DNA of 64,000 bases from a virus (Duplodnaviria > Heunggongvirae > Uroviricota > Caudoviricetes). The position numbers and the translations under genes were made by a program. The notes beneath the pieces are model-generated. The model was not told where the DNA came from, ran no database searches, and saw only the letters and a program-made list of their open reading frames with translations. Positions 1,022 to 18,975 of this stretch are shown piece after piece. Each line of letters opens with the position of its first letter. Position 1 is the stretch's first letter. The stretch lies in IMG/VR virus record IMGVR_UViG_3300021066_000001; one strand, 5' to 3'.

Positions 1022-1687
1022 TCACTTGAACGCCTGCCAAAGCCCGGTACCCACCGAACCGCCGCAAAGCGCCGTCTTGAAGCCTGCCTCTAGTAAGAGG
1101 GCGTAGAGATTCTCTGGACTGATCCACTTAAAATGGGTGACGTGCGGCGGCAGGCCGTCACGAGCTTGCACGTGGTATACCGTGTCGCCGACGAGGTAGG
1201 ATACCTCCACGAAGTTGTGACCGTCGAGCGTGTATTCACGCACCTTCGGAGCACGCGGCGGCGCGACGTTGAACGTGTTGAAGGCGAAGACGCCCCCGGG
1301 CGCGAGCACCGCGTACACGTCCCGCGCGGTCTCGGGAGTCAGCCAATAGTTGATCCCCTGTTGGCACGCGACGACGTCGTACGGCACGTCGTGCACCCAC
1401 CACCGACGCAAGACGTGCTCTACCTGGTCGTGGAAGATGCGGTTGGCGCGGTTGCATGCCCAGAGCGCGGTCCGTGCCTCGGCGGTGAGCATGTCGGGCT
1501 CGTCGTCGACGTAGGACACCCGCGCGGCTCCCGCGTTGATCGCGTGCAGGGAGAGGCGCCCGCCTCCGCCGCAGAGGTCAAGCACGTGCTTACCTTCTAG
1601 CACAACGCCCTCTAGCAGCTCGGCCGGCGTCCGCTTGAAGAAGCGCTGGTAGAGCTGCTCGTAGACCTCGTGGATGGGGTAACGCAT
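1022..1687 (-). CDS. Class I SAM-dependent methyltransferase
   Basis: VLDLCGGGGRLSLHA (motif I GxGxG), acidic residue after beta2 (YVDDEPDM). Confidence 0.7.
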   Translation of the reverse strand: MRYPIHEVYEQLYQRFFKRTPAELLEGVVLEGKHVLDLCGGGGRLSLHAINAGAARVSYVDDEPDMLTAEARTALWACNRANRIFHDQVEHVLRRWWVHDVPYDVVACQQGINYWLTPETARDVYAVLAPGGVFAFNTFNVAPPRAPKVREYTLDGHNFVEVSYLVGDTVYHVQARDGLPPHVTHFKWISPENLYALLLEAGFKTALCGGSVGTGLWQAFK

Positions 1688-2775
1688 CAGTACTTGATCA
1701 GGAAGGCGCCGTGGCCCTCGATGTTGAAGATGTCTTCTTGAGGAATCACTCGCTCGGCATCGCGCACGGTGCCCGCTGGGGCGTAGGGAAGAGTGGGTGC
1801 TCCAGGCACTTGACGGTGCCAGTGGATGATCGATTGACAGGTCGTTTTCTTGAAGATCATGTCGAGGAGCGGGGCGTTGAGGGTCGCTTTCCGCCCCTCG
1901 GTGATCACCTCACGAAACGTGTGATCGACGACCTTCACGTAGACCCGGTCATCGAGCTCATTCTTGCCGCGCCCGGTGGTCAGAAAGCTGCCGTTGATTC
2001 CACGCACCGCGATCGTGCCGAAGACGTAGCCCTCAGGAGTCGTCTCGAACATCTTCTCGTGAGAGCGCACCTCGCTCTCGAATCGCTTGAACATCAACGC
2101 CCAGATCGGATTTGCCGTTGAGCGGGGTGCCTCTTGATCGACCGTCGTCGTGTAGTACTTGTCGGCGGCGCACTCGAGGATGAACTTCTTGAGGTCACCG
2201 GCCTTGCGATCTAGCACCCCGCGCTCGCGGGTGACGATCAGCTTCCGAGAGAGATCGTTCGTGTCGTTCGCAAAGACGGCCGTCGCCTTAGCCTCGAGGA
2301 CGATCCCGTACGCGGCAGAGATGAGCTCCTCCTCTTGAACGTTCGTCAACAGCTTGAACGCGAAGAGCTTTGTCCACGGAGCCGCCTTCTTGACCTCGTC
2401 GACGATCCGAGGAGCGATCGTGAAGTTGATCGGGATGACGTCTCCGGGCTTGTAGTTGTGGCTCGGAAACTTCGTCGTCATCTCGACAGCCGGAATCAGG
2501 TTAGCGACGGCGGCGCCGAGCACGACGGCGTCGAAGTCCTTGGCCATCTTCGTCACCAGGTCTAGATAGTCGTGGATGCCGCGGTGGGTGATGATCCGCA
2601 GGTCGACCGATCCGGTCGGAAGCTCAGCTCCCTTCGCCGTGAGATAGGTGACCTCGGCGTGGTAGCTCAGCTCCTCAGCGAGTTCGGCCATCAATCCGCC
2701 TCTGAACCGGTTCGTGATGATCTTGACCGGGTCGAGGTGAGCGTGGACCGGACCGCCGGTGACGAGGATTCTCAT
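1687..2775 (-). CDS. CoaB-like (phosphopantothenate-cysteine ligase / DFP family) domain fused to a C-terminal domain of unknown function
   Basis: Start trimmed to the internal ATG (MRILVTGGPVHAHLDPVKIITN...), abutting the next gene's stop. Matches E. coli Dfp CoaB domain blocks: ITAGPTREPxDPVR, CAAVADY ~ GAAVANL, ICANDV ~ VFANDT. Confidence 0.6.
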   Translation of the reverse strand: MRILVTGGPVHAHLDPVKIITNRFRGGLMAELAEELSYHAEVTYLTAKGAELPTGSVDLRIITHRGIHDYLDLVTKMAKDFDAVVLGAAVANLIPAVEMTTKFPSHNYKPGDVIPINFTIAPRIVDEVKKAAPWTKLFAFKLLTNVQEEELISAAYGIVLEAKATAVFANDTNDLSRKLIVTRERGVLDRKAGDLKKFILECAADKYYTTTVDQEAPRSTANPIWALMFKRFESEVRSHEKMFETTPEGYVFGTIAVRGINGSFLTTGRGKNELDDRVYVKVVDHTFREVITEGRKATLNAPLLDMIFKKTTCQSIIHWHRQVPGAPTLPYAPAGTVRDAERVIPQEDIFNIEGHGAFLIKY

Positions 2776-3338: not shown

Positions 3339-3608
3339 CTATGAAGAGACGATGAACCTGAGGGTTTTCACGTTGGCCGGAATCTTGTCTAGGTCGACCT
3401 CGAACCCCGACTCCCAGTCTCCGTGGTAGTCACGTGTAGGGACCTCGACCTCCAGGCCCGACGGATCTGGATCTTGCCCACCGAAGAACTCTGAGACGCT
3501 CTCAGGCACTTCGACATTTGCCTTCTTGCAAGCGTCCCAGACCTCCTTCATCTCTCTCCACTTTTCGTCAGGCGGCACAAATCCCATCACGTGCAAAGAT
3601 AAGCTCAT
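3339..3608 (-). CDS. Hypothetical protein (89 aa)
   Basis: ORF track, start trimmed to the internal ATG that overlaps the stop of the ABC ATPase. Confidence 0.4.
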   Translation of the reverse strand: MSLSLHVMGFVPPDEKWREMKEVWDACKKANVEVPESVSEFFGGQDPDPSGLEVEVPTRDYHGDWESGFEVDLDKIPANVKTLRFIVSS

Positions 3609-4447
3609 CAGATGCTCCCGAAGAGACCCTTGATCTCGCGGACCGTGGGCCAGAAGTTGGGGTGAGCGGTAACGTCGCTCGTCCAAGCGAGACCTCGAGC
3701 GATCAGGTCATACTCCTTGACGAGGTACGCGCCAGGAACGAAGTCGCCCTTGTCGTCACGATCACGCCCCAGGACCCAGATCGTGTCGGCGATCGCGACC
3801 GCTTGCTCGATGTCGTGGGTGGTGACGATGATCGTGTTGTACTCGTTCTGCTGGGAGACCTGGAGCACGAGCTTAGCCGCGATCTCCTTGTTGATCGGGT
3901 CGAGCCCCGAGAAGGGCTCGTCCATCAAGATGTAGAAGCTGCTGCACAGCACCTGCTGGATGATCGCGACCCGCTGGCGCATCCCGCCTGAGATCTGAGA
4001 CGGGTAGAGATTCTTGGTGTGGGTCAGGCCGAACTTCTCCATCAGTTCGACGACGTCCTCATCGGACTTCTGGTGGCGACCAGCCGCTAGCTTTAGGTTG
4101 CTCCAGATCGTTCGGTGCTTGAGAAGCGGGTAGCTCTGAAAGACGACGCCGACGTCTCCGGCCTGGGGCTCCTTGTAGGTAGCCGCAGCCTTGTCGCTGC
4201 CGGGGTTCACGCGGTAGCTGATCTTGCCAGACGTCGAGCGCTGAAGCCCGGCCAGACACTTGAAGAGCTGAGTCTTGCCGACGCCCGACGGTCCGAGCAG
4301 CGCAACGACCTGTCCCTGCGTCAGCCCGGGCCGCTTGATGTTGTCGACCTTGAGGTTGACGTCTCGGAGGATCACCTTGGGTCCGTACGAGAGGCCTAGC
4401 CCCTCGACGGTAAGCAAGCGGCTGCCGAGAGAGAAGTCGCGACTCAC
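3608..4447 (-). CDS. ABC transporter ATP-binding protein (SsuB/TauB/NrtD-like family)
   Basis: Walker A GPSGVGKT, signature LSGGMRQRVAI, Walker B ILMDEPFSGLD, H-loop TTHD. Confidence 0.85.
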   Translation of the reverse strand: MSRDFSLGSRLLTVEGLGLSYGPKVILRDVNLKVDNIKRPGLTQGQVVALLGPSGVGKTQLFKCLAGLQRSTSGKISYRVNPGSDKAAATYKEPQAGDVGVVFQSYPLLKHRTIWSNLKLAAGRHQKSDEDVVELMEKFGLTHTKNLYPSQISGGMRQRVAIIQQVLCSSFYILMDEPFSGLDPINKEIAAKLVLQVSQQNEYNTIIVTTHDIEQAVAIADTIWVLGRDRDDKGDFVPGAYLVKEYDLIARGLAWTSDVTAHPNFWPTVREIKGLFGSI

Positions 4448-4746
4448 GACGCCCTCGAGCTGCCCTTGCAGATCACCGCACGTTGTCCAGTTAAGCCAGA
4501 ATGCGGAATCACCTTCGCGATCGCTCGCCGAAGCTCCTCAAGATCGGCTCGATCCTTCTCTAGCTCCATCACGTGGGAGGCGACGCGGCTGATCATCGTC
4601 GCCTTGAAGACCTGCGCGGTCATCTGACCAGGCTTCTTCTCGTACCCCTTCTCGAGGTCGAAGCAAGAGAGCAGAGAGTAGAGCTGCTCGATCGTGAGGT
4701 ACGAGAGCACCTCGGTGAAGATGTCACGCTGCTTTAGATCCATCAC
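4444..4746 (-). CDS. Hypothetical protein
   Basis: ORF track; 4-nt overlaps with neighbours. Confidence 0.4.
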   Translation of the reverse strand: MMDLKQRDIFTEVLSYLTIEQLYSLLSCFDLEKGYEKKPGQMTAQVFKATMISRVASHVMELEKDRADLEELRRAIAKVIPHSGLTGQRAVICKGSSRAS

Positions 4747-5051
4747 GGCCTCCTGAGGTTAAACATGCGAACGGTGTACCAGATCGCGAGCGGCCAGTAG
4801 ATCCAGCCAAACAGCACGCAAACGAAAAGCTCACCGGGGTGATACTTCTTGTCGACCGTCGCCAGAGCCGCCCAGCTGAGAAGTCCAGCCCCAAAGATGT
4901 AATAGCAGATGGGGGCGAAGTGGTCGTCTGGCGCGGCGATGAACCAGGGATGATGCTTGAAGGTCCCGAGAATCACGGCCGCGACGATGATCGCGACGAC
5001 CACCCCCAAGATCACCATGACCTCAAACTTGTCGCGAGGGCGGGCTTTCAT
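4743..5051 (-). CDS. Small integral membrane protein
   Basis: Start trimmed to the ATG overlapping the permease stop (ATGA); three hydrophobic segments. Confidence 0.45.
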   Translation of the reverse strand: MKARPRDKFEVMVILGVVVAIIVAAVILGTFKHHPWFIAAPDDHFAPICYYIFGAGLLSWAALATVDKKYHPGELFVCVLFGWIYWPLAIWYTVRMFNLRRP

Positions 5052-5827
5052 CGAGCGCTCGTCAACGCGACGTAGGGGCAGATGATGTTGCGAATCCACC
5101 TCAGCGCGTAGTCCTGGAGAATTCCGTAGACCAAGATGGTTAATTGTATCGCAAAGATCGCGTCGAGATTTAGGTGCTTGCTCATGTTCATCAGCAACGC
5201 TCCGATCCCGCCCTCATACCTGACGAGCCCCTCCACCATCGAGAGGAGAGTCCACCCGATCGCGGCGTTTTGCCTGATCAGGTCGAACGCTTCATCCATG
5301 CGGCCACGCACGACCACCTCGAAGGTGGCGCGCCACCCCGAGAGCCCGAGGGTCTTCGCGTAGTCGATCTCCTCCTGCGTCACGCTGTCGATGATCGCGA
5401 GCATGTTAGTCAGCAAGAAGGCGGTCATCCCGAAGGTCAAGAGCCAGATCTTGAGCGCGGCGCCGTCGGACGTCCACAGGGTGAAGAAGAAGGTGATGCC
5501 CGCGAAGCCGAGAAATCTCAGCGAGGTCATCCACCTGATGATCGGCTTGAAGGCGGGCGCGGTGTAGAGCACACCCAGGCCGAGCGTGATCGCCGACGCG
5601 TAGAAGATCGCCGACGCGATCGTGACGGAGCTCTTCCAGAGCTCGACGAGCATCCCCTGGGTCGTCGCTAGCATCTCCCAGGCTTGCAAGATCTCTAGCG
5701 GGTTTGGGATGAGCTTGTACGGCGAGATGAACCAGAGAACGAGCAAGATGATCGCTTGCCCGATCGCTAGGATCTTGAGTGACCCGACCGGCTCAAACGG
5801 AACTACGTAGCTCTTCAACGATCCCAC
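5048..5827 (-). CDS. ABC transporter permease (SsuC/TauC-type inner-membrane component)
   Basis: Multiple TM helices; EAA-like loop region (...DYAKTLGLSGWRATFEVVVRG...). Confidence 0.75.
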   Translation of the reverse strand: MGSLKSYVVPFEPVGSLKILAIGQAIILLVLWFISPYKLIPNPLEILQAWEMLATTQGMLVELWKSSVTIASAIFYASAITLGLGVLYTAPAFKPIIRWMTSLRFLGFAGITFFFTLWTSDGAALKIWLLTFGMTAFLLTNMLAIIDSVTQEEIDYAKTLGLSGWRATFEVVVRGRMDEAFDLIRQNAAIGWTLLSMVEGLVRYEGGIGALLMNMSKHLNLDAIFAIQLTILVYGILQDYALRWIRNIICPYVALTSAR

Positions 5828-5912
5828 TCGACGCCTCCGTCGTTAGTTTGGGCGAGCACCTTGGGTTCGAACCAAGATCTTACGAGCCAACTCCCTCGTG
5901 CTCGCTTACGTC

Positions 5913-7697
5913 TTAGTTCGCGCGGAGGATAACCTCGACGCGACGGTTCCTCGAGCGCCCGGCGGCGCTCGCGTTGCTCTCCACCGGCATGTCCTGGCCG
6001 TAGCCGCGGGTGGCGATCCGGCTCTCCGGGAAGGCCTCGCGCGAGTTCGTCATCAGGAAGTTCTTCACCGCGTCCGCGCGCTCCTTCGAGAGCGATTGGT
6101 TGCGGGTCGGGTCACCGGTGCTGTCGGTATGTCCGTTGATCTGGACCGACATCCCCGAGACCGCTACCTGGTTGAGGAGCTCGTCCAGCACCGTCGCTGC
6201 CCTCTCGTTGAAGGTCGCCTTGCCGCTGTCGAATTCGATCGTCCAGGCGCGTTTGGCGACGACGTCACCGCGGGCCGCGTCACGGTAGACCGGCAGATCG
6301 GCCTTCGCCATTCGGGTCACCTTGCTGGCGACGCTCTCGATGTACTTCGAGGTCACCACCTGGTTGTAGGGCACCAGGCGCGGCAGCTCGGACGGGTAGA
6401 AGCGGTTGTCCATCTCGCCGAAGACGGTGTAGACGCGCTTGTAGATGTCGTCCTTGCCGCCGACGCCGAAGAGGTGGACGTTGTCCGCGAGGCCGATCGT
6501 GGTCGATCCGCCCAGCTGAACGCCGTACATCTCCTTGCCCTTGAAGTACGTCTTCCAGTAGGCGCCGTCCTCCTCCTTGAAGACCTTGGCGGCGGTCTCG
6601 GCGGCCTGGGTCAGCGCGACGTCGTTCGAGCGGACCAGCTCGCCGCCCTCCCAGGCTGCCGAGAGCATGCCCTCGACGAAGCGGGAGTTCTGCGCCATCC
6701 ACTGCTTGTTCCCGATCACGATCGACGGCATCATCATCGCGTACTCCCTCGTCGACGCGACGGAGGCGATGCCGGCGCAGGCGAGGCGCTTCTCGTTGCA
6801 CTTGGTGACGACGTTGACGTCGCCCGGCGTCCAGGTCGCGGTCCCGTTCTGGCAGGCCTTGACCGTCTTGCCGGTCTTCTTTCCGTTGTTCACCTCGGGT
6901 CGGTTCTCGCAGTAGCCGTTGATCAACTTCTCGTCGGCCTCGGTGAAGGCGCTGACCGAGACGAAGTTCATCGCGTTCGGGTCATACGTCTTCTCGTCCG
7001 GGTTGACCGGGATGCCGTTGTCACCCGCCCACTTCATGCAGATGTGAACGTCGCCGTCGCGGAGAACGCCGCCGATCAGCGAGCCGCGCGCCTTTTGCGG
7101 GTCGGCCTTGACGGCCGCCGGCAGCATGCACTTGTCCTCGCCGCGGGAGAAGCCGATCGCGCCGACCACCTGGATCTCCTGGCCGAGCTTGTTCAGCACC
7201 TGCTGGGCGCCGTACGCGAAGCCGGGCAGGGCGTCACCCATGATGACGGCGAACGCCGCTCCTCGGTTCGGCACCGCGACGCCCTTGGAGACGTCCTCGG
7301 CGAAGGCGACCAGCTCGGCGGTGATCTTGCCGTAGTCGTCCTCGCGCTGCACGTCGAGCTTGACCCCGGCCTTGGCCATCAGGCTGTTCGGAGCCGTTGA
7401 CGGGCCGCCGTTCGCGTACATCAGGCCCAGCGTCCCGTTCCAGGGAATCGTCAGGAACTTCACCCGGATGTCGCTGTTCCCGGCCGGCGCGAGCGCCACC
7501 TGGGTGACCTGCGCTCCTGCGCTCGGGGCCGGGGCGCCGAGGTTGCCTGACGGCAGGTCGACGCGAGTCGGCACGCTCGACGCGACGGTGGGTTTGGTGT
7601 TGAAATAACCGCGTTGGTCCGCATAGTTGTAGCCGAAGTAGGCTGCGATTGCCACGACGGCCACGACCAGGGCTTTGCCTCCAGCTTTCAATTGCAT
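5913..7697 (-). CDS. ABC-type substrate-binding protein (NMT1/SsuA/TauA-like) fused to a C-terminal OmpA/MotB peptidoglycan-binding domain
   Basis: N-terminal signal/TM; C-terminal OmpA_C hallmark TIEFDSGKATF...VQINGHTDSTGDPTRNQSLSKERADAVKNFL...RRVEVIL. Confidence 0.7.
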   Translation of the reverse strand: MQLKAGGKALVVAVVAIAAYFGYNYADQRGYFNTKPTVASSVPTRVDLPSGNLGAPAPSAGAQVTQVALAPAGNSDIRVKFLTIPWNGTLGLMYANGGPSTAPNSLMAKAGVKLDVQREDDYGKITAELVAFAEDVSKGVAVPNRGAAFAVIMGDALPGFAYGAQQVLNKLGQEIQVVGAIGFSRGEDKCMLPAAVKADPQKARGSLIGGVLRDGDVHICMKWAGDNGIPVNPDEKTYDPNAMNFVSVSAFTEADEKLINGYCENRPEVNNGKKTGKTVKACQNGTATWTPGDVNVVTKCNEKRLACAGIASVASTREYAMMMPSIVIGNKQWMAQNSRFVEGMLSAAWEGGELVRSNDVALTQAAETAAKVFKEEDGAYWKTYFKGKEMYGVQLGGSTTIGLADNVHLFGVGGKDDIYKRVYTVFGEMDNRFYPSELPRLVPYNQVVTSKYIESVASKVTRMAKADLPVYRDAARGDVVAKRAWTIEFDSGKATFNERAATVLDELLNQVAVSGMSVQINGHTDSTGDPTRNQSLSKERADAVKNFLMTNSREAFPESRIATRGYGQDMPVESNASAAGRSRNRRVEVILRAN

Positions 7698-7728
7698 GGT
7701 TAAAGCTCCCGTTGGTGGTTTGAAAGAG

Positions 7729-8838
7729 TTACTTCTTTGCTCTACCAGAGCCGAAGAACTGGTCCTGGTAGTCTCCGCCGCTCACGGAGACCGCCTCGTC
7801 GGCGGCGATCCGGGTCGGCAGGGATTCGGTGACGTGGTGCTCGATGAGGAGACGCTTCTCGCCGCCAAGCAGCAGCGAGTCGGTCTGGTTCTCGAACTTC
7901 GCCAGCTTCTCGAGCGCTTCGGCTTGCCACACGCCGTTTTGCAGGTCGATGCCCTCGAGGACGCCGCGCGTCGAGTCCATGAAGTCTTCGATCTCGCCGA
8001 GCTTCTTGCCGTACTCGGCGGCGGTGTACTCCATCGCCTGCTCGAACAGCTCGTACTCGTCGCCTGAGCCGCGGAGAATCGCCATCGCCTTCGACATCGC
8101 CTTGTGCGACGCCCTGATCATGTCGCGCTCTTGCTCCCTGACGCTCACCTCGTTCTTGATCTCGGTGATCGCGTTGGCCGACGCGATCTCATACTTGATC
8201 AGCGCCTTGTAGAGCATCTGCATCTTCGACAGCGCACCCTCGAGCCGCTTGTTGAGGGCGGTCAGCCGGCCGTGCTGGTTGCTGTTGATGCCCATCTGCG
8301 ACTTGGCGGAGAGGACGGCCTCCTGGTCGCCGCGCGCCTCGGCCTTGAGCCCCATCTCTCGAGCCGCCGCGACCATCTTGAGAGCCTTTGCGGCCTCGTC
8401 CTGGTTTTTCTGGATCTTCTGTTCGGCGATCGAGATCTGCCCCTTGAGGGCCGACTTGCTCTCCCGGAGCTCGGTGAGCTTCTCGTTGAGGGTCGAGATG
8501 TACCCCTTCATGATCCCGATCGGGTCGATCTCGACGAACCACTGGGTGATCCACCGCATCACGCTCTTGAAGCCGTAGTTGACCAGCAACCACACCTTCC
8601 GGTTGGTGACGAAGAGCGCCAGGAGCGCGAGGCCGACGGCCGAGATCGTCGCGGCGATCGCCGCGTTGAAGAGCGCCGCGAGGTTGTTGAACATCGTGAT
8701 GAAGATCGGCGAGATGACGTTGAAGCCCATCGCGACGCCGAGTGCGATGAGGGCGATGACGATCATGCCGGTGGTGCCTTCTGGCTTGCTCCAGAAGGAC
8801 TTCGGCTTGAAGTCGCTGGGGACGGACGTGGGTAGCAT
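7729..8838 (-). CDS. Membrane-anchored PspA/IM30 (phage-shock protein A)-like coiled-coil protein
   Basis: Two N-terminal TM helices followed by ~250 aa of heptad-rich sequence resembling PspA/Vipp1 (LIQEMED.LVE-like block MRWITQWFVEIDPIGIMKGYISTLNEKL...). Confidence 0.45.
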   Translation of the reverse strand: MLPTSVPSDFKPKSFWSKPEGTTGMIVIALIALGVAMGFNVISPIFITMFNNLAALFNAAIAATISAVGLALLALFVTNRKVWLLVNYGFKSVMRWITQWFVEIDPIGIMKGYISTLNEKLTELRESKSALKGQISIAEQKIQKNQDEAAKALKMVAAAREMGLKAEARGDQEAVLSAKSQMGINSNQHGRLTALNKRLEGALSKMQMLYKALIKYEIASANAITEIKNEVSVREQERDMIRASHKAMSKAMAILRGSGDEYELFEQAMEYTAAEYGKKLGEIEDFMDSTRGVLEGIDLQNGVWQAEALEKLAKFENQTDSLLLGGEKRLLIEHHVTESLPTRIAADEAVSVSGGDYQDQFFGSGRAKK

Positions 8839-8860
8839 CGGTTTGCCTCCGGGTTGGTGA

Positions 8861-9574
8861 TTAGGTGAGGAGAGCCGAGAGGCTCGCCTTCTCGCCCTCG
8901 AGCTCGCTCTTGACGTGCTCGACGGTCAGCTCGAAGCGAGCCGCGACAGCGCGGATCTCGGCTTCGGCGGCGTCGGCCTCGGCGCTGAGCTCGTTGATCT
9001 TGGCCGCGCTCTCACTGATCTGGTTCTCGAGCGACATGATCTCGCCGCGCAGCTGCTCGATGCGCTTCAGGGATGTCTCGTTGGCGGCCTTGAGCCTCGT
9101 CGCTTCGGTGCGAGAGGTCCCCGACTTGGCCGCGATCTCGCTCTCGGTCTTGGCGGTGAACCTGCGCGCCTCTGCGACGAGGTCCATCAGGTGGATGTCG
9201 ATCGCCTTGACGATGTCCGACGACGAGCGTTGGCTCGTGGCGAAGGCCGCCTTGATGCGCGTTGACTTGTCGGGGATGACGTTGACCAGGAGGTTGGACT
9301 TTTCCTGGAGATCGGTGTAAGCCGAGGCGCGCTTCGCGATCATCTTTTGAAGCGCTTCATACATCTCCGGGTCGTAACCGACCGCGACGCGGGCGGGAGC
9401 GGTACCTCCGGGGGCGGTTGCGACTGGCTTCGTCGGCGCCGGCTTGGGCGCTTGCTTGTCATCGGGAAGCTCGACGAGCACGCCGGCCGCGGCCCGTCCG
9501 AGTGACTTCAAACCACCGAAGAAGCCAGAGTTGTCATCGGCCATGTGAGCTTGTTTCTCCTTTCGCGCTCGCAC
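8861..9574 (-). CDS. Coiled-coil protein, unknown function
   Basis: ORF track; Ala/Glu-rich heptad composition. Confidence 0.5.
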   Translation of the reverse strand: MRARKEKQAHMADDNSGFFGGLKSLGRAAAGVLVELPDDKQAPKPAPTKPVATAPGGTAPARVAVGYDPEMYEALQKMIAKRASAYTDLQEKSNLLVNVIPDKSTRIKAAFATSQRSSSDIVKAIDIHLMDLVAEARRFTAKTESEIAAKSGTSRTEATRLKAANETSLKRIEQLRGEIMSLENQISESAAKINELSAEADAAEAEIRAVAARFELTVEHVKSELEGEKASLSALLT

Positions 9575-9612
9575 TTTGGTGAAGGCAGCGAGCTTTCCTC
9601 AAGTTCTAGGAA

Positions 9613-9642
9613 GTTATATCATCTTTCCAAGAACAAGTAAAC
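9613..9642 (-). promoter_or_regulatory. T4-early-like promoter GTTTAC-N18-TATAAC
   Basis: minus strand GTTTAC 9642..9637, TATAAC 9618..9613, ~38 nt ahead of the ATG at 9574. Confidence 0.4.
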
Positions 9643-9663
9643 TCACATGGCACAAATTTTAGC

Positions 9664-10548
9664 TTAGACCGCCACCTCAAGCTTCACGAACGGATGAGAT
9701 CTGTATCCGACGATGTCGAAGTCCTCGGGCTTGTAGCCGTCGATGTCAGTGTTGTCGGTCAAGATGTCTAGACCGGTCGGACAGTCGATCGGTGCTCTGT
9801 CAGGAGAGCTTAAGATCTCCCTCATCTTCTCGACGTGGTTGAGATAGATGTGGGCGTCGCCGTAGTTGATCTTGAGATGCCGCGGCTTCAAGCTGGTCGC
9901 TCGAGCGAGGAGATGAGTGAGCAATGCGTACTGCGCGATGTTGAACGGGCCGCCCAGGCAAGTGTCCCACGACCGGATCGCCATCATCAGGTCGAGGTGA
10001 CCGTCGTTCGAGACGTAGCACTGGAAGTCACGATGACAGGGCGGCAGCCCCATCTTCTCGACGTAGGCCGGGTTCCACGCGGACACGATCAAGCGACGAT
10101 CACGAGGTCTCGTCTTGATGCGCTCGATCAAGTTCTTGATCTGGTCGATCGGCGGCTCGAAGACGACCGTGCGACCAGGCTCACGCGTCAGGATCGAGTG
10201 GTGCTTGAACCGGTCCTCGCCGAACGCCTCGTAAGCTGCACCCGGCCAACGACGCCACTGCACGCCGTAAACCGGACCCAAACTTCCGTCTGGCTTCGCC
10301 CATTGATCCCAGATATGAACGCCGTGGTCATGCAGGTACTTGATGTTAGGCTCGCCGCGGAGAAACCAGAGCATCTCGATGAACGCATGCTTCCACAGCG
10401 TCTTCTTGATCGTGACGAGCGGAAAGCGCTGACGAAGATCGAAGGAGAGTTGGCCGCCGAAGATCGAGAGAGTGCCGACTCCGGTACGATCCTCGCGGCG
10501 CTCTCCCTCGGAGAGAATCTTGTTGAGCAAGTCTACGTATTGTTTCAC
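9664..10548 (-). CDS. thyA: Thymidylate synthase (ThyA family; dUMP hydroxymethylase cannot be excluded)
   Basis: RRLIVSAWNP, LPPCH catalytic Cys, FQCYV, GGPFNIAQYALL (Asn = uracil-type specificity), GDAHIY; ~30-aa C-terminal extension. Confidence 0.85.
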   Translation of the reverse strand: MKQYVDLLNKILSEGERREDRTGVGTLSIFGGQLSFDLRQRFPLVTIKKTLWKHAFIEMLWFLRGEPNIKYLHDHGVHIWDQWAKPDGSLGPVYGVQWRRWPGAAYEAFGEDRFKHHSILTREPGRTVVFEPPIDQIKNLIERIKTRPRDRRLIVSAWNPAYVEKMGLPPCHRDFQCYVSNDGHLDLMMAIRSWDTCLGGPFNIAQYALLTHLLARATSLKPRHLKINYGDAHIYLNHVEKMREILSSPDRAPIDCPTGLDILTDNTDIDGYKPEDFDIVGYRSHPFVKLEVAV

Positions 10549-11171
10549 GGACGCCTCTTGAAGGTAAGGTATGGGGTCACCGCCCCGGTGTGAAAGAAGA
10601 CCTCATACTCGGGGATGTCTTCACCGACGTTGAGGAGATCAAACTGATCTGAGTAAACAGTCGCTTCGAACTTGAGGCTCGCGTAGTCATACTCGACCTT
10701 CATCGGAATCGCGTGCTGCCAGAGAAGTCGAACCATCCCCGGACTGTGGTCGAGCACACCTCGGTCGTAGCTGATCTTGCCGTAGCGACGATCTAATTTT
10801 TGCGTTGATTGAGCTGCTTGAGCCTGCAAGTGTCCGCCGGTGCTCGTGCTAGTGATGATCAAGCTTGGATTGGCGGTCGTGCTCGTAGAACCGCTAGCTC
10901 CAGATGAGCCTCCGCCCGCTGCCCCGGTGATGATCGATCCGTTGGCCGACGAGCCGCCAGAGCCCCCGGCCGCTGCGCTGTAGTTGTAGATGATGATCTG
11001 ACTCGGCGACAGCGTCGCGCTTCCCACGATGGTGACGGCAGGATTCACGTCGGTGGCAACGAACTCGGCCTTGTCCTCGGCTGGAGTCGCAGCTTGAGGC
11101 TGGCTCTGGTCGCCAAAGACGTCTCGCCGCATCGCGTCGATCTCGACGAGGAGCTCCGAGAGTGACGCCAT
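10545..11171 (-). CDS. Hypothetical Gly/Ser-rich protein
   Basis: ORF track, start trimmed to the ATG abutting the upstream stop; low-complexity GGSGGSS middle. Confidence 0.4.
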   Translation of the reverse strand: MASLSELLVEIDAMRRDVFGDQSQPQAATPAEDKAEFVATDVNPAVTIVGSATLSPSQIIIYNYSAAAGGSGGSSANGSIITGAAGGGSSGASGSTSTTANPSLIITSTSTGGHLQAQAAQSTQKLDRRYGKISYDRGVLDHSPGMVRLLWQHAIPMKVEYDYASLKFEATVYSDQFDLLNVGEDIPEYEVFFHTGAVTPYLTFKRRP

Positions 11172-11836
11172 CAGGCCGCCCCCAGGTACTTCTGAACGAG
11201 CTCCTCGGTGCGCGGCGGAATCCACCCAGCTGGCTTGCGTACGTCCCAGGTCGAGCCGCGCTTGGAGTCCGCCGCGTTAAGCACTCGCTCCTTCGCCATG
11301 TTAGCTCGTTGCACGTCAGTCCACAGCTCATTCCACTGGATGAGGGTGAAACCCATCCGGTAAGCACCGTACAGGCAATTTTGATAGAGGGAGACGAGCG
11401 CGTTCTTGACCCCAACCTCGTGGTTCGAGATGAACGCTAGGATGTAGTCGTCGATGTTCTTCCGCAGCACCCGGTGAAAGATCTGGTGATTCTCAGGGGT
11501 GAGCAGGTGGGGCTTGAGCCCGGTAAACTTGTCGGCCTCTTGGGACGAGAAGAGCATCTCCTCAGGCGTCCCTGCCTCGACGAGCTTGTTGAACTCGGGA
11601 ACGTCGATTCCGTGAAGGAGGGCACAACCGCAGGTGATGTAGACCAGGTCGATCAGCGAGTCGATCGCTGTCGCTAGATCTTGACGCATGTACGCGTCGA
11701 CGTACTCCTCAAGCTCCTCGTGGAAGAACTTGACTCGAAACTCGAAGAGACCTTGCTCGAGCTTCGTGAAGTGAGGAGGGGTTACGAGCGCGAACTTGTC
11801 GTGAAAGTCGCGTACATCCTGACAGTAGTTGACCAT
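11171..11836 (-). CDS. All-alpha NTP pyrophosphohydrolase (MazG/dimeric dUTPase-like)
   Basis: FFHEELEEYVDAYMRQDLATAIDSLIDL matches the EExxE...ExxD metal-binding pattern. Confidence 0.45.
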   Translation of the reverse strand: MVNYCQDVRDFHDKFALVTPPHFTKLEQGLFEFRVKFFHEELEEYVDAYMRQDLATAIDSLIDLVYITCGCALLHGIDVPEFNKLVEAGTPEEMLFSSQEADKFTGLKPHLLTPENHQIFHRVLRKNIDDYILAFISNHEVGVKNALVSLYQNCLYGAYRMGFTLIQWNELWTDVQRANMAKERVLNAADSKRGSTWDVRKPAGWIPPRTEELVQKYLGAA

Positions 11837-11896
11837 TGAATGCTCCGAAGATAGAGCATTCTAAGCTCCCGGTCAACTAAAGGAAATTTTACCGAG

Positions 11897-12130
11897 TCAG
11901 AAGATTCCCAGATGCTTCAAGAGCAGCATGATCGCGGTGACAGGGAGAACGACCGCCCAGGTCTTCCAGTCTCGCAAGAAGTAGATGAATAGCTCAAACG
12001 ATTGAGTGACGCCGTCAAGCATGATCTGCCGAGTTTCTCTGATCAGCGCCGTGACCGTCAAGAAGCCGATGGTGACGACGAGAATCGTCACCATCAGCCA
12101 CGGGTGGCTCCCGAGAAGCTCGACGATCAC
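11897..12130 (-). CDS. Small membrane protein
   Basis: Two hydrophobic helices. Confidence 0.45.
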   Translation of the reverse strand: MIVELLGSHPWLMVTILVVTIGFLTVTALIRETRQIMLDGVTQSFELFIYFLRDWKTWAVVLPVTAIMLLLKHLGIF

Positions 12131-12786
12131 TAGCGGAGCGAACCCTTGCCGAGCTCGGCGTGCGAGTACTCGAGCGACTCGAAGTCGGTCGAGAGGGTCT
12201 TGGCGAGGTGATCGCGCAGGTGGGCGAGGTCGGCTGCCAGGGTCGGCTGGTCATGCGCGACGATCTTGGCGCGCGCCGTGTTGTAGAAGATCGCGGCGCC
12301 GACGATGACGTCGAAGAGGATCTCGATCTTGCCCGTCACCTTGTTCTTCGCGTACTTCGGCGCCTGGACCGCGCTGTAGCGCCAGCCGCGCACGCCCTTG
12401 ACGCGCGACTTCTCGGCCCAGCGCTTGATGACGTCGCCGATCTCGCCGCGTAGATCGGCGAGATCGTGAGCCGAGGACGCGTTCGTGATCACCTTGAGCT
12501 TGATCGCAGACAGCTCCGGAACAGCGGCCACCGCCGAGTGGATGTTCGGAACGTCGACCGAGCGATAGTTCGCCTTGTTCTCAAAGAGAACGTTGGCCGA
12601 CATGCGCTTCAAGCGCTTGTCGGTGAGCAGAGCGACGATCGCGTCGGTCGCGTTGGGGACGACAAGCTCGGTGAAGTCCGGCTGATTGTCCATCTGACCC
12701 TCCGGGCCGAACGCCGAGGTCGCGACGTCGAAGCCGCGAACGATGAAGGGACGTGCTCTCTTGGACTTCTGGGTGCTGAGGTTCAT
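12130..12786 (-). CDS. Hypothetical protein
   Basis: ORF track, codon-usage consistent. Confidence 0.5.
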   Translation of the reverse strand: MNLSTQKSKRARPFIVRGFDVATSAFGPEGQMDNQPDFTELVVPNATDAIVALLTDKRLKRMSANVLFENKANYRSVDVPNIHSAVAAVPELSAIKLKVITNASSAHDLADLRGEIGDVIKRWAEKSRVKGVRGWRYSAVQAPKYAKNKVTGKIEILFDVIVGAAIFYNTARAKIVAHDQPTLAADLAHLRDHLAKTLSTDFESLEYSHAELGKGSLR

Positions 12787-12812
12787 GGGTATCTCCCGTG
12801 AGAAAAGTGGAA

Positions 12813-14162
12813 TTACTTCGAGTCGAACTCGATGAGGTAGCGCGGCCGCGCTTGCGACAGGCGGTAGACGATCATCTCGTTATTCATCACGCCCGACTTT
12901 TTGGCTTGAGCGTACATCGAGTCGTAGCCGCTGGGCAGCCGGCCAGTCGGGTTGCTGGGCGTGTAGTAGTTGCCCATCGCGACGTCGAAGAGGAACATGA
13001 AGCAGTTGGAGTCGCGGCGGCCGCCGTCCCAGTAGCCGTAGCTGTAGTTGAGGGATTTGGTCGACTGGTCGCTGAAGTAGAGGCCGTCGCCGAACATGCG
13101 GCCGGTGATGTTGATCGAGCCGCCGCTGCGCGGAATGATCAGGCCCGACTTCAGGATCGACAGCACGTTGAAGACGCGCGTGCCGTGCCAGAGGGTCCAG
13201 TTGTTCTTCGCCGCCTGGGCGACCGGGTCATTCTCGAACGCCTTGGAGGCGCCCGGCAGGTCGACCTCGAAGAAGCGCACCGGCTTGAGGTGACGCGACT
13301 CGTGGATGTTGTTCGCGCTCTCGCGGAACATCTTGATGATGCGATCGATCATCTTGCCGTCCGTGAGGACCTTGATCTCGGAGTCGAAGACGTTCGGCAT
13401 GTCGGCGATCGACTTGTCGGCCGCGATCGCGCTCTTCGCCCTAGACTCGGCGAGGTCGGCCGAAGCTTCCATCTGGTCCAGCATCGTGTTCTGGCGCTGG
13501 AGGGCGTTCATGTCGGGGATGAAGGCGCGGTGCCAGCCGCGCGAGTGGCCGACCTTTTGCGGCACCTTGCGGAGATAGGCGCCCAGCTTGTTCATGAAGG
13601 CAGGGTTGTCGAAGTCACCGCGCTGGACGTAGACCGCGAGGTCCTGGAGGATCGTGCGAGCGTCGATGATCGAAACCTTGCCGATCACGCCGACGGCCGA
13701 CGAGATCACGCCCGTCTTCAGGTCGATGTCGATCATGCCACCGGACGAGGCGATCAGCTCATGCTTGTTCGCCTTGACGAGCCGCTCGACGAGGTCATGG
13801 AGAACAGGGTCAGCGGCCTTGACGAGCTGTGACTTGGCCGCCTCGACCAGGACGACCTGGCTCTTGACCGGACCGGTGGGCCCGGTCGGTTGGCGCTCAG
13901 CGATGACGTTGACGATCTCGTAGCCCTTGAGGAGCTTCTCGGCGATCTTGCCGGCGAGGTTGAGTTGCTTCGGGGGCTCGACGTTCAGCGTGTCACGGCC
14001 GACGCGGCCGTACTTGACGATGATGCCGGCGGGGTCCTTGACGAACTCCCAGACCTTGTTATTGTTGTTCTCGGGGTCAGTGCAGACGAACTTTGCGGTG
14101 TCGAGCTGTGCGTATTGTGCGGCGAGCTTTTTTGCGGCTTCTTTATCGAGTTGGACGACCAT
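12813..14162 (-). CDS. PARP-family ADP-ribosyltransferase with N-terminal WGR domain
   Basis: WGR-like KVWEF...KYGRVG; catalytic H-Y-E signature: TLWHGT (His-Gly-Thr), GRMFGDGLYFSDQSTKSLNYSY (Tyr), NEMIVY...YLIEF (Glu). T4-late-like TATAAATAG 53 nt upstream. Confidence 0.7.
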   Translation of the reverse strand: MVVQLDKEAAKKLAAQYAQLDTAKFVCTDPENNNNKVWEFVKDPAGIIVKYGRVGRDTLNVEPPKQLNLAGKIAEKLLKGYEIVNVIAERQPTGPTGPVKSQVVLVEAAKSQLVKAADPVLHDLVERLVKANKHELIASSGGMIDIDLKTGVISSAVGVIGKVSIIDARTILQDLAVYVQRGDFDNPAFMNKLGAYLRKVPQKVGHSRGWHRAFIPDMNALQRQNTMLDQMEASADLAESRAKSAIAADKSIADMPNVFDSEIKVLTDGKMIDRIIKMFRESANNIHESRHLKPVRFFEVDLPGASKAFENDPVAQAAKNNWTLWHGTRVFNVLSILKSGLIIPRSGGSINITGRMFGDGLYFSDQSTKSLNYSYGYWDGGRRDSNCFMFLFDVAMGNYYTPSNPTGRLPSGYDSMYAQAKKSGVMNNEMIVYRLSQARPRYLIEFDSK

Positions 14163-14214
14163 GATTTCCTCTTATCGCGATTATGATGGATGCCCTAAGT
14201 TCTAGGTGCACAAT

Positions 14215-14223
14215 CTATTTATA
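14215..14223 (-). promoter_or_regulatory. T4-late-type promoter TATAAATAG (the TAG doubles as the stop of the upstream small gene)
   Basis: Exact TATAAATA on the minus strand, 53 nt before the PARP-like gene ATG; AGAGGAAA SD follows. Confidence 0.5.
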
Positions 14224-14418
14224 GGAAGAGATCAATCTCAATTCGGGGCGGCGCTTGCGGGGAGAGGGCGGTGTAGCCGAGCGCTCTCCGTCGCTGAAGC
14301 CGAACTTGTAGAAGAACACCGCGAAGCTCAGGTAAGCCGCGCCCATGAGTCCAAACGCGATGTAAAGGGCGTCATCACCGCGGAACGGAGCCAGGTAGAG
14401 AGCGGTGCACACCGCCAT
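14215..14418 (-). CDS. Small membrane protein (67 aa)
   Basis: Trimmed from ORF 14215..14649 to the ATG before the hydrophobic C-terminal half; the upstream part overlaps a better ORF in another frame. Confidence 0.35.
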   Translation of the reverse strand: MAVCTALYLAPFRGDDALYIAFGLMGAAYLSFAVFFYKFGFSDGERSATPPSPRKRRPELRLISSYK

Positions 14419-14476
14419 GATTCCGAGCGACGGCAGCCGCAGAGGAGCATGAGCATCGTAACGAGGAAGGAGGGCT

Positions 14477-14788
14477 TCACCGGTTGTACCAGAGGACGTG
14501 GGTCGCCCACTCGGGGGCAAATTGCTCTCCAGAGAGAATCTTGGAGGGTTTGATCCAGTTTGTGATGTCGCTGTAGACGACATGTGTAGCTGTTGCCCAG
14601 TCGCCCATTCCGTCATAATCGATGAAACCGCCTGCTTGGCAGGCCTCAACGAACTCCTCGATCGTCATCAGATCGCCGTTGGAAGCTTGCTTGACGAATC
14701 GCCCCTCATCTTGCTCGACGTCTTCGAACTCGATGAGCTTCGCATTTTCCGGAATCATGAAGGTAATTTTATCACAAAACTCGAGCAA
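14477..14788 (-). CDS. Hypothetical acidic protein
   Basis: ORF track. Confidence 0.5.
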   Translation of the reverse strand: MLEFCDKITFMIPENAKLIEFEDVEQDEGRFVKQASNGDLMTIEEFVEACQAGGFIDYDGMGDWATATHVVYSDITNWIKPSKILSGEQFAPEWATHVLWYNR

Positions 14789-14807
14789 AGAACACGAAAG
14801 TGAGAGC

Positions 14808-15119
14808 TTATTGCATTAATCTGGCGATCTCGAGGGCATGTTTCACGGTGATCATCTCGCTTCCCATCTTTTTATCGATGGTCCTGATGAACTCGCGCGC
14901 CCACGGCGGTAACGCCATCGTCGTCTTGTAAGGACGAGATCCGAAGCCCCAGTTTACCCCACTACCTCCTACTCTCACTCGCTGTACGCGAAACTTTCTC
15001 GTGAGATAAACCGCGATGGGACACATCGCGCAATTGTTCGCCTTCGCGAACAGCTCGTAGGGATTGCGCTTCGCCTTGTTCTCGAGCCAAGCTTGAAACT
15101 CGCTCTTGATTAATCTCAC
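14808..15119 (-). CDS. Hypothetical protein
   Basis: ORF track. Confidence 0.45.
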   Translation of the reverse strand: MRLIKSEFQAWLENKAKRNPYELFAKANNCAMCPIAVYLTRKFRVQRVRVGGSGVNWGFGSRPYKTTMALPPWAREFIRTIDKKMGSEMITVKHALEIARLMQ

Positions 15120-15310
15120 GCTCCCTCCAGCGTCGCGTTGTGAAGCTCGACGATCCTGCGGCCGACCTTGTAGCCGACGTTAAAGGCAACGGCCCCGTAC
15201 GCTTCGATGTCCTTACGGTGCTCGAGCAAGACGTGAAACTTCTCCTCGGTGTAGATCGAGCCGTCGATCACCTGCCAGCGCACCTTCGTGACGTCCTTGA
15301 GCGCTCTCAC
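15116..15310 (-). CDS. Hypothetical small protein
   Basis: ORF track; 4-nt overlaps. Confidence 0.4.
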   Translation of the reverse strand: MRALKDVTKVRWQVIDGSIYTEEKFHVLLEHRKDIEAYGAVAFNVGYKVGRRIVELHNATLEGA

Positions 15311-15954
15311 GTCGCCGCCTGAACGAAGGCCTGGAGCAAGCTCTCCTCGATCACGTCAGGTCGTTGGTAGAGGCTCGATGCGACAAGGATGAACTCGAGG
15401 AGCGGCTTGAACGTCCCGACGTTCTCGGCGGTCATCCCGCTCGCGACGGCGAGCCTCCCGCCGGCGGCCGAGCTCATCCGAGCGATCTTCTCGAAGGTGG
15501 GCGGCTTTCCTGTCCCCGGACCGCTAGTGGTCGGGATGAAGCCGAGCTTGACCGCGTTCTCGGCCGCCTTCTCGGGATCGCTCTCTGGGGCTTGATACTT
15601 GAAGGCGGTCGCGGCGAAGACGAAGCCACCGAAGTACTCTCGCGAGTTGGCGAGCTCTTGCTGCTCCGCGGTCGGTCCCGCCGACGAGAGCTGCTGGTCG
15701 AACCAGAGCATGTCGAGCTCGTGGCTGAGCATCTGAACGTAGGCGATGTTCTCTGGCACCGAGAGCAGGTTGACGCCGACCTTCAACTTCGGGTGAGCGC
15801 GCTTGACCTTGACGGCAGCCTTGAGAAGCTTGATGTCCTGGTTCGCGTGGGAGATTAGAAACGTGCCGTAGCAGCCAGCGGCCGCGATCTTGGCGGCCTC
15901 CTGGAGGGCGTGACGATCGTCGTGAAAGTGGATGACCGGGCAGATCTTGCTCAT
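15307..15954 (-). CDS. Hypothetical protein, possibly a TIM-barrel (BtpA/SgcQ-like?) enzyme
   Basis: Start trimmed to the ATG overlapping the upstream stop (ATGA); weak resemblance only. Confidence 0.3.
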   Translation of the reverse strand: MSKICPVIHFHDDRHALQEAAKIAAAGCYGTFLISHANQDIKLLKAAVKVKRAHPKLKVGVNLLSVPENIAYVQMLSHELDMLWFDQQLSSAGPTAEQQELANSREYFGGFVFAATAFKYQAPESDPEKAAENAVKLGFIPTTSGPGTGKPPTFEKIARMSSAAGGRLAVASGMTAENVGTFKPLLEFILVASSLYQRPDVIEESLLQAFVQAAT

Positions 15955-16760
15955 CCGAGGTGCTTCTCCCTCATGCGCTCGAGAGTAACTTGTGCGCCTC
16001 GCGGAGGGATTGCTCCGAAGACGACCTCTCGGTAGGTGCGCAGGTAGCTGATGGCTTGTGCTTGGGTCCAAGCGTGGATCACGTAGTAGAAGGCTCCCTC
16101 TTGCTGGGTGTCAGGGACATCCTTGAACGCGGAGGAGAGCTTCTTCACCTGTTCCTTCTCGAGGCCGATGAAGCAGAGCTCCCAGACTCGCTTGCGCCGC
16201 CGGATCTCAAGCTTGATCTGCTCGCCGCGAGAGTTGAGGCGAGGACTCATCGGCTCGGTGATCGGGATGATCTCAAACCAGGACACCCGCACGTCGTCAT
16301 AGCGAGCGTGCGGTGGCCAGTACCGATTCGGAACCTCTCTCAGGTCGTAATCGACGTAGCCCTCGGAGGATCTGTCACCGCGGCTTGGCACCTCGAAGAA
16401 CATCCACGCGAGGGACAGCCAATCGATGACGCGCTCTCGCTCCGTGAAGTTGCGAAGTCGTCCCATGCATCCCCGGTGCACGTGCTGTCGGGTCTCGCGA
16501 TCATAGACCTGGTCGTCGAGAGACTCCGACGAGTTGACCCACCGCTGGCCGCAGAGCGGACACTTTTGTCCGACCAGATTGGCGCCCATGCGCCATGCCA
16601 CCAACTCTCCGTCCTCGCTGAGAACGCCGATCATGAACTGGTTGAACTCGTCGTAGCCGGTGAGCTGGTCGTGCGTCACCGGACGCTTGATGAATCCTCT
16701 CACCTGAGCCATCAGCTTCGAGCTCATGCCCAGATCCTCATGAAGATGTCGGCGGTCCAC
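15951..16760 (-). CDS. Hypothetical protein with CxxC...HxxC zinc-binding motif
   Basis: ORF track; CPLCGQRW...HVHRGC. Confidence 0.45.
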   Translation of the reverse strand: MDRRHLHEDLGMSSKLMAQVRGFIKRPVTHDQLTGYDEFNQFMIGVLSEDGELVAWRMGANLVGQKCPLCGQRWVNSSESLDDQVYDRETRQHVHRGCMGRLRNFTERERVIDWLSLAWMFFEVPSRGDRSSEGYVDYDLREVPNRYWPPHARYDDVRVSWFEIIPITEPMSPRLNSRGEQIKLEIRRRKRVWELCFIGLEKEQVKKLSSAFKDVPDTQQEGAFYYVIHAWTQAQAISYLRTYREVVFGAIPPRGAQVTLERMREKHLG

Positions 16761-18702: not shown

Positions 18703-18909
18703 TCAGCTGCAGAAGAGAATGCGGAGGTTGGTCATGCGGGTCCGGCAGTGCGCGCAGACCACTTGACCGTCGGACTTCAGCGTGAACATGTCACCTTGGC
18801 ACTTTGTGCAGTAGTACTCGATCACCGATTGTATCGCCGGCGCCGCACGCAGCGGCTTGAAGTCTGAGAGCTTGATGACTTCAGCGCACTTGCCGAGGTT
18901 TGAGTTCAA
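18703..18909 (-). CDS. Small zinc-ribbon protein
   Basis: CTKCQG...CAHCRTRM; TTG start with GGAGG SD. Confidence 0.45.
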   Translation of the reverse strand: MNSNLGKCAEVIKLSDFKPLRAAPAIQSVIEYYCTKCQGDMFTLKSDGQVVCAHCRTRMTNLRILFCS

Positions 18910-18969: not shown

Positions 18970-18975
18970 CAGAAA

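Follow-up and report, generated by a model that had tools for sequence, protein, structure and literature searches.

The window analysed here, a 64,000-nt stretch of IMG/VR record IMGVR_UViG_3300021066_000001, was taken from a 395,674-bp metagenomic contig and carries close to one end a gene for a 362-amino-acid (aa) protein, in which a diverged CoaB domain is fused to a class II aldolase-like domain. The positions of this fusion gene and of the other features are listed in Table 1. An earlier sequence-only reading had placed an open reading frame (ORF) with CoaB-like blocks at this position, and the blocks GGPVHAHLDPV, GAAVAN, and FANDT could indeed be found on the minus strand. The start codon was set at the ATG at position 2775, which is common to the homologue alignment (MRILVTGGPV...) and the public gene call; the mechanical ORF runs on to position 2952. 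The start codon of the fusion gene overlaps the stop codon of an upstream 187-aa ORF by one base (TAATG), and its stop codon overlaps the start codon of a methyltransferase gene, also by one base (TGATG). The codon-position GC content of the fusion gene (GC3 0.75, GC2 0.42) was similar to that of the adjacent genes. Since a total of 576 homologues of the fusion protein were obtained, the majority of them full length, the ORF was considered a real gene and not a chance reading frame. Several genes of phage type were present on the source contig, namely a T4-type RNA ligase, topoisomerase II subunits, a dNMP kinase, thymidylate-synthase homologues, MazG, Apyc1, and a collagen-like putative fibre protein. 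These genes, together with relatives of the module (the fusion gene and its methyltransferase partner) that occur in IMG/VR on contigs of up to 548 kb, make a huge phage a reasonable description of the source.

The gene downstream of the fusion is translationally coupled to it and encodes a class I S-adenosylmethionine (SAM)-dependent methyltransferase (MTase) with a Rossmann-like domain. Alignment of its family revealed the conserved motifs VLDLCGGxGRLS, CQQ(A/G)(V/I)NYW, FNTFN, and HHVQ, the first of which is the Gly-rich SAM motif. The nearest solved structures were those of small-molecule N-methyltransferases, including ToxA (E 1e-10) and phosphoethanolamine N-methyltransferases. A weak similarity to the MTases of ribosomally synthesised and post-translationally modified peptides (RiPPs) was also detected, and the motifs of nucleic-acid MTases were absent. 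A total of 114 module loci were gathered from species genomes, IMG/VR, and metagenomes. The MTase gene was located downstream of the fusion gene in 97 of the 99 loci with sufficient room, usually with overlapping stop and start codons, a near-obligatory partnership that the sequence-only reading had overlooked. The two exceptions were L012, where a divergent MTase was spotted by eye, and L090. Small genes were inserted between the fusion and the MTase in 8 loci only, and these genes were mutually unrelated.

A profile of the C-terminal domain, run against 1.84 billion representative proteins, recovered 411 proteins, almost all of which had the CoaB–aldolase-like architecture. In proteins P0315 and P0324, the aldolase-like domain is joined to the MTase rather than to CoaB. 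Because of such alternative (Rosetta-stone) fusions, the domains of the fusion protein and the MTase can be regarded as one functional unit with shifting gene boundaries. Clustering of the neighbouring genes over 34 and then 114 loci revealed no third universally conserved gene. Scans of the fusion protein against PHROGs and PADLOC produced no match, and the MTase only weakly fitted a generic MTase model of the MADS system.

Folds and conserved residues of the two domains

The N-terminal domain can be placed in the CoaB superfamily as a diverged member. The Pfam family DFP (PF04127) was matched by residues 2–175 with E=2.5e-16 and a score of 60.5 bits, the cut-off being 22. An AlphaFold2 model received a predicted local distance difference test (pLDDT) score of 90.5 and a predicted TM (pTM) score of 0.88, and the top 50 PDB matches of this model in Foldseek were all CoaB, i.e., phosphopantothenoylcysteine synthetase (PPCS), structures with a TM(target) of ~0.7. 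The closest solved relatives by sequence were the monofunctional CoaB-type protein of S. pneumoniae (2gk4) and the CoaB domains of Bacillus, Mycobacterium, and E. coli; sequence and profile searches both placed the monofunctional streptococcal-type CoaBs as the best relatives. The match of residues ~1–210 to the CoaB half of Dfp, which the sequence-only reading had proposed, is thereby borne out by PF04127, Foldseek, and the alignment. The lack of a CoaC flavoprotein half could be confirmed as well, since a Pfam scan of the fusion protein found no flavoprotein CoaC half (PF02441), and tblastn with a CoaC query found no CoaC in the whole 64-kb window.

Residue conservation was read from a family alignment of 38 homologues. 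Invariant residues of the N-terminal domain include G8, P9, D15, K18, N22, N92, K102, K141, and N170. In CoaB, the second half-reaction involves a conserved Asn (E. coli N210, M. smegmatis N211) and a basic residue (R206/R207), the Arg by which the cysteine is oriented, D281 of the AAVAD motif in the M. smegmatis enzyme coordinates the catalytic cation with the CTP triphosphate, and a K-x-K-K flap contacts the triphosphate (PMC7794376). The Asn of the second half-reaction was retained in the family as the invariant N22, and the cysteine-orienting Arg was replaced by the invariant Lys K18. Among the CTP-binding Lys and Asn residues on which the CoaB assignment had been staked, N22 and one Lys in the region of the flap, K102, were invariant, and the assignment was not contradicted. 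The N-terminal domain probably keeps nucleotidyl-transfer and amide-ligase chemistry.

The extra C-terminal region of ~160 aa was conserved across the family alignment. The family profile weakly picked up the class II aldolase-like protein 2irp of Aquifex, and the motifs G-T/N, T-x-x-G-K, K-x-x-x-N/E, H-x-H, and H-G could be aligned with this structure. PF00596 was matched by 17 of 23 homologous C-terminal domains (best E 9.7e-6), and some homologues carry a precomputed PF00596 annotation; the C-terminal domain of the window protein itself had no PF00596 match at E ≤ 1. The residues H318, H320, and H355 constitute an HxH...H triad, which was invariant and aligned to the His residues of HTH and GHG in 2irp. 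R269, K271, N300, D339, and R342 were likewise invariant, with R269 and K271 located within the loop aligned to the T-x-S-G-K loop of the class II aldolase family. The catalytic and metal-binding Glu, which is found at the position of E73 in FucA and in the KPSAE motif of 2irp, was replaced by the invariant N300. The protein ends 7 residues past the third His, H355, and ~50 residues of the canonical domain are absent; the solved relatives with the class II aldolase fold are 195–277 aa long. These comparisons identify the C-terminal domain as a truncated form of the class II aldolase/adducin fold in which a His metal triad is conserved. The domain is predicted to bind metal and is unlikely to act as a classical aldolase. 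The sequence-only reading had described a C-terminal domain of unknown function; the extra domain does exist, but its fold proved to be recognisable.

Gene neighbourhoods and distribution of the module

Three low-GC (23–29% GC) bacterial contigs share an operon in which a divergent LysR gene is followed by genes for a CoaC-type flavoprotein, a canonical type III CoaB, an aldolase-like domain joined to the MTase (Ald-MTase), and a class I aminotransferase. Reading frames overlap within the operon, and the Ald-MTase proteins share only 47–48% identity between the three contigs. The CoaB of these operons closely matched a solved CoaB structure (E 6e-37) and the CoaC a solved CoaC structure (E 9e-32). 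The aminotransferase could be assigned to the MsAT/LysN/KAT-II group of 2-oxo-acid transaminases. On a phage-like contig, L061 (Ga0307375_10003780), coaC and a canonical coaB are located directly upstream of the fusion and MTase genes. The region 4124–12718 of L061 is a compact cofactor island, with a NadD/NMNAT-like protein at 8428–9051 and a WGR/PARP-like protein from 11699 on, and it is preceded by genes for a vWA protein, a PP2C phosphatase, and a protein-kinase-like protein. In Candidatus Paceibacter (L116, DYGE01000005.1), the fusion and MTase genes are followed, 38 nt on, by a gene for a protein with a PPAT/CoaD N-terminal half (PPAT 175.8 bits against a cut-off of 103.3). In the product of this gene (11799–12995), the CoaD (PPAT) domain is followed by ~200 aa that contain an HD-like H...HD motif.

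The CoaE–CoaD fusion that the sequence-only reading had reported in the window itself was found at the stated positions, on the minus strand, and both halves exceeded the NCBIfam equivalog cut-offs (PPAT 157.9 against 103.3 bits, DPCK 90.2 against 65.55 bits). A tblastn search of CoaE–CoaD against cultured phages detected CoaD in numerous jumbo phages from which the module is absent, and no cultured-phage record covered at least 80% of the fused query. CoaD-like genes (PPAT where annotated) were seen in cultured Brevundimonas and Caulobacter jumbo phages, Mx1, and MaAM05.

Among 97 unique loci, genes for PncB were present within 6 kb of the module in 20 and genes for NadE in 14; NAD-dependent LigA (6 loci), nucleoside 2-deoxyribosyltransferase-like proteins (6), and HD_4 proteins (7) were observed within the same distance, the HD proteins of separate loci not all being homologous. 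PncB or NadE directly adjoins the module in L073, L053, and L099, and ADP-ribosylglycohydrolases are located next to it in L016. The NAD signal was produced mainly by one phage clade and three small ones, and was nil in the 22 loci of candidate phyla radiation (CPR) type. Huge phages commonly cluster cofactor genes, and we read the NAD co-location as phage "cofactor islands". Genes for tRNAs, RNA ligases, Tpt1, and the CCA-adding enzyme were also found near some loci, but none of them was recurrent.

The family comprises ~300–400 clusters at 50% identity. The sole full-length match among 50,697 phage records was a 485-kb uncultured phage, and no viral structure with this architecture was found in BFVD. 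Some of the CPR loci are plainly cellular and carry genes for PheRS, GyrB, NusG, L11, ATP synthase, and RecA. Literature searches that covered CoaB-like proteins, fusions of class II aldolases, the synthesis of CoA in CPR bacteria, and the CoA genes of jumbo phages revealed no description of the architecture. The closest relative, L019 (64% identity), carries the anti-defence families Tad3 and Gad2 among many small ORFs (488–2881), less than 10 kb from the module. On the 319-kb contig L017, which has genes for LigA, Ku, and RF-1 as well, a group I intron (Rfam RF00028, 64.8 bits) is located at 6356–6550, by tRNA genes just upstream of the module. When the upstream regions of the gene were searched for riboswitches in ten cellular or large loci, just tRNAs and one group I intron were detected.

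With regard to the other genes of the window, the module is surrounded on the minus strand by a NitT/TauT-type ABC importer (3608..7697 and beyond the window start), and a complete importer is unusual in a phage. This transporter cluster was considered as a part of the module and rejected, as it was not conserved in any other locus. The region ~7700..41200 also encodes a PARP catalytic-domain protein, a phosphoribosyltransferase-domain protein, a T4 Rnl1-type RNA ligase, and a dNMP kinase. On the minus strand of the region ~42000..63200, a set of cofactor and anti-defence genes was found, coding for NAMPT (NAPRTase+NAMPT_N), a NUDIX protein, a second cytidylyltransferase-like protein (a possible NMNAT), the anti-Pycsar protein Apyc1, an HD_4 protein (42022–42648), MazG, a second thymidylate-synthase-like protein, and a peptidase M3. 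The collagen-like gene, one of the few plus-strand genes in the window, accounts for a local GC peak (0.68) and an AT-skew anomaly, and its product is probably a fibre protein. The methyltransferase, glycosyltransferase family 2, and TPR matches in that part of the window probably belong to the 572-aa ORF.

Table 1. Location of the module, its conserved residues, and other genes of the window
Feature	Position	Strand	Basis or remark
Two-domain gene, 362 aa (diverged CoaB + class II aldolase-like domain)	1687..2775	minus	ORF, homologue alignment, public gene call
N-terminal CoaB/DFP (PPCS) domain, residues 1–~203	2167..2775	minus	Pfam, PDB sequence/profile searches, Foldseek, alignment
N22	2710-2712	minus	invariant; Asn of second half-reaction
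N92	2500-2502	minus	invariant; takes the place of cation-ligand Asp
K102	2470-2472	minus	invariant; apparently the sole Lys left of KxKK flap
Truncated class II aldolase/adducin-fold domain, residues ~204–362	1690..2166	minus	profile search, alignment
N300	1876-1878	minus	invariant; site of catalytic Glu in FucA/MtnB-type enzymes
H318	1822-1824	minus	invariant; putative metal triad
H320	1816-1818	minus	invariant; putative metal triad
H355	1711-1713	minus	invariant; putative metal triad
Class I SAM-dependent methyltransferase, 221 aa	1022..1687	minus	PF13489, PF13649 above cut-off
ABC importer ATPase	3608-4447	minus	
TauC/SsuC-like permease	5048-5827	minus	
594-aa protein with C-terminal OmpA peptidoglycan-binding domain	5913-7697	minus	
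NMT1_3 substrate-binding protein	L001 12205-13149	minus	just outside the window
Thymidylate synthase	9664-10548		
PRA-PH/MazG-like protein	11171-11836		
CoaE (DPCK)–CoaD (PPAT) fusion, 349 aa	21762..22811	minus	context only, 19 kb from module
Topoisomerase II subunits	22808-24202, 24421-26364		
572-aa ORF	54095..55813	minus	
Collagen-like protein, 716 aa	55882..58032	plus	G-P-T-G-x-x triplets and C-terminal non-repeat domain

Proposed function and comparison with known systems

The module is read here as an accessory and mobile ligase/tailoring module related to coenzyme A (CoA) precursors, and a probability of about 0.5 is assigned to this reading. The unit consists of three domains, namely a diverged type III CoaB domain, a truncated and predicted metal-binding aldolase-fold domain, and the coupled SAM methyltransferase, and its substrate would be a 4'-phosphopantetheine/CoA precursor. 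A carboxylate, with 4'-phosphopantothenate or a close analogue as the likeliest candidate, would be activated by the CoaB-type domain as an acyl-cytidylate and passed to an amine (cysteine-type) nucleophile. The metal domain and the MTase may provide a metal-assisted enolisation or binding step and a methyl transfer, on one substrate or on the ligation product. Such a unit would represent a horizontally mobile accessory to CoA-related metabolism and not merely step 2 of the textbook pathway. A role on CoA precursors is best supported because the CoA contexts converge, the aldolase-like domain is fused to a CoaB-type ligase, and the nearest relatives of this ligase domain are the monofunctional CoaBs. 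The active-site changes, the canonical CoaB in L061, and the strict coupling to the metal fold and the MTase argue that the module adds chemistry beyond the textbook pathway.

Several observations weigh against a CoA-precursor function. To our knowledge, the textbook CoA pathway needs neither an aldolase-fold domain nor a methyl transfer. When scored against the NCBIfam PPCS equivalog models NF005231, TIGR02114, and TIGR00521, the fusion protein missed the cut-offs (82.5 against 265, 76.2 against 217.2, and 36.9 against 219.7 bits). The cation-ligand Asp (D281) is replaced by the invariant Asn N92 (GAAVAN) in 38/38 aligned homologues, apparently a single invariant Lys is left of the KxKK flap, K102, within a family-specific K-F-P-S-H in a loop whose alignment is uncertain, and the SSGK motif of CoaB reads F[KR]GG in the family. 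Most of the 97 unique loci carry no CoA gene within ±6 kb, and one large phage clade sets the module among NAD-salvage genes (PncB, NadE). The overlap between 16 CoaD-bearing and 14 module-bearing IMG/VR contigs was nil, in a pattern scan of low sensitivity. Furthermore, the family is sporadic, as the pattern scan found it in 12 of 185,579 species-representative genomes, mostly metagenome-assembled genomes of Patescibacteria/CPR, besides 14 IMG/VR contigs and 222 metagenome stretches.

It is unlikely that the fusion protein is an orthodox PPCS, whose N-terminal domain makes 4'-phosphopantothenoylcysteine while the C-terminal domain is structural, regulatory, or a replacement of CoaC and the MTase is incidental. 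The DFP fold with N22 and one flap Lys, the genuine CoaE–CoaD in the window, and the canonical CoaB that takes the place of the N-terminal domain of the fusion in the low-GC operons are consistent with it; however, the equivalog cut-offs are missed approximately threefold, an invariant substitution has removed the cation-ligand Asp, SSGK is lost and KxKK apparently too, and conservation is strict at the putative metal site of the aldolase-like domain. The MTase is not incidental, since its pairing with the fusion is near-universal, and the aldolase-like domain is no CoaC substitute in the low-GC operons, because CoaC is also present there. Due to the low equivalog scores, the Asp-to-Asn replacement, the apparent reduction of the flap to one Lys, and the canonical CoaB and CoaC that coexist with the fusion in L061, the N-terminal domain is not considered an orthodox PPCS, and its assignment to step 2 of CoA synthesis is not established. 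The count of three of the five CoA steps in the sequence-only reading is therefore upheld in part, by the genuine CoaE–CoaD and by the CoA genes adjoining the module elsewhere, but not for the N-terminal domain, which fails the PPCS equivalogs and shows active-site changes. The alternative offered there, a repurposed ligase chemistry, is at least as likely as the PPCS reading. A more far-reaching proposal, which we rate as distinctly unlikely, is that the three-domain unit (with the transaminase where present) constitutes a folate-independent pantothenate/CoA branch, in which PanB would be bypassed by enolisation of a 2-oxo acid on the metal domain and SAM-dependent gem-dimethylation by the MTase, and the diverged CoaB-like domain would catalyse a second amide ligation, of PanC/PPS-like and not PPCS type; if true, a compact route leading to a CoA precursor, or else to a methylated analogue of pantetheine, would be encoded by huge phages and by the symbionts of the CPR.

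A different ligation combined with a SAM-dependent route to pantoate would have an enolised 2-oxo acid (e.g., 4-hydroxy-2-oxobutanoate from homoserine) C-methylated twice to ketopantoate by the metal domain and the MTase, with the help of the aminotransferase where there is one, and the diverged CoaB-like domain would join (phospho)pantoate to beta-alanine, bypassing PanB and PanC. The class II aldolase fold acts via metal-stabilised enolates, and an aminotransferase of genuine 2-oxo-acid type, an MTase, and this metal-dependent enolising fold stand together beside coaC–coaB; moreover, the presence of a canonical CoaB besides the diverged ligase in L061 speaks for a ligation that is not redundant. 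The route is nevertheless purely inferential and very improbable, as no conserved reductase accompanies the module, the diverged ligase is missing from the low-GC operons, the closest solved MTases are N- and not C-methyltransferases, and an Asn occupies the position of the catalytic Glu in the aldolase fold. We also give little credence to a role in nucleotide or NAD tailoring or in counter-defence, with the ligase acting on a carboxylated pyridine nucleotide or its kin and the module belonging to phage NAD-restoration islands. The recurrence of PncB, NadE, LigA, nucleoside 2-deoxyribosyltransferase-like, and HD_4 genes, the loci in which PncB or NadE abuts the module, the ADP-ribosylglycohydrolases of L016, Tad3 and Gad2 near L019, and the NAMPT, Nudix, PARP, and Apyc1 genes of the window would fit this role, but the proximity may reflect a general cofactor island (CoA and NAD genes occur together in L061), and PADLOC did not match the fusion. 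Because the linkage is concentrated in one phage clade and three small clusters, and is missing from the CPR-type loci, it was kept as a rival only. Modification of a macromolecule (tRNA, protein, or a cell-envelope component) or an unrelated secondary-metabolite pathway appears highly doubtful too: the neighbours seen at some loci (tRNA genes, RNA ligases, Tpt1, CCA-adding enzyme) and the weak similarity to RiPP MTases point that way, but such neighbours do not recur, the MTase resembles small-molecule MTases, and conservation extends neither to a precursor-peptide gene nor to a carrier gene.

CoA is made in five steps, by a pathway that is regarded as completely mapped, and huge phages and CPR bacteria are thought to depend on their hosts for cofactors. 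The coupling of ligase, aldolase-like domain, and MTase in operons with coaC, coaB, and coaD would imply an unrecognised reaction on the CoA pathway, whether in precursor supply, tailoring, or salvage. As the module occurs mainly in huge phages and CPR bacteria, it may show how CoA-type cofactors are obtained or altered by these entities in the course of infection or symbiosis, and alongside the phage NAD-salvage genes it would add a second cofactor to those that phages may manipulate.

Under the preferred reading of an accessory module acting on CoA precursors, the nearest known counterpart is the monofunctional type III (streptococcal/enterococcal) CoaB (TIGR02114/NF005231; 2gk4). It has the same fold and motif order as the N-terminal domain, including the Gly-rich N-terminus, D-x-V-(R/K)-x-(I/L)-T-N, AAV-x-(D/N), GFKLL, and AND. 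In contrast, the N-terminal domain is only ~25% identical to it and scores about one third of the equivalog cut-offs; the fusion has Asn for the cation-ligand Asp, F[KR]GG for SSGK, and apparently a single flap Lys, and carries an extra aldolase-fold domain and an obligatory MTase partner. As in the bifunctional CoaBC (Dfp), a CoaB domain is fused to a second domain, and in some genomes the module lies beside a CoaC flavoprotein. Unlike CoaBC, the fusion has no HFCD flavoprotein domain, and its partner domain is C-terminal and of class II aldolase fold. Compared with FucA, the AraD epimerase, the MtnB dehydratase, OtnC/YgbL, and the HMPD decarboxylases, the C-terminal domain is short (~160 against ~210 aa); it differs from the class II aldolase/adducin superfamily by the invariant Asn in place of Glu, and its sequence in the window protein falls below every Pfam threshold. 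The MarG/MarI/MarH-type sets, which combine an aminotransferase, a SAM C-methyltransferase, and a metal-dependent epimerase, make beta-methyl amino acids. Similarly, the extended low-GC operon brings a transaminase together with an MTase and a metal-dependent enolising fold, but its metal enzyme has another fold, there is no sequence kinship, and the phage/CPR form of the module is without the transaminase.

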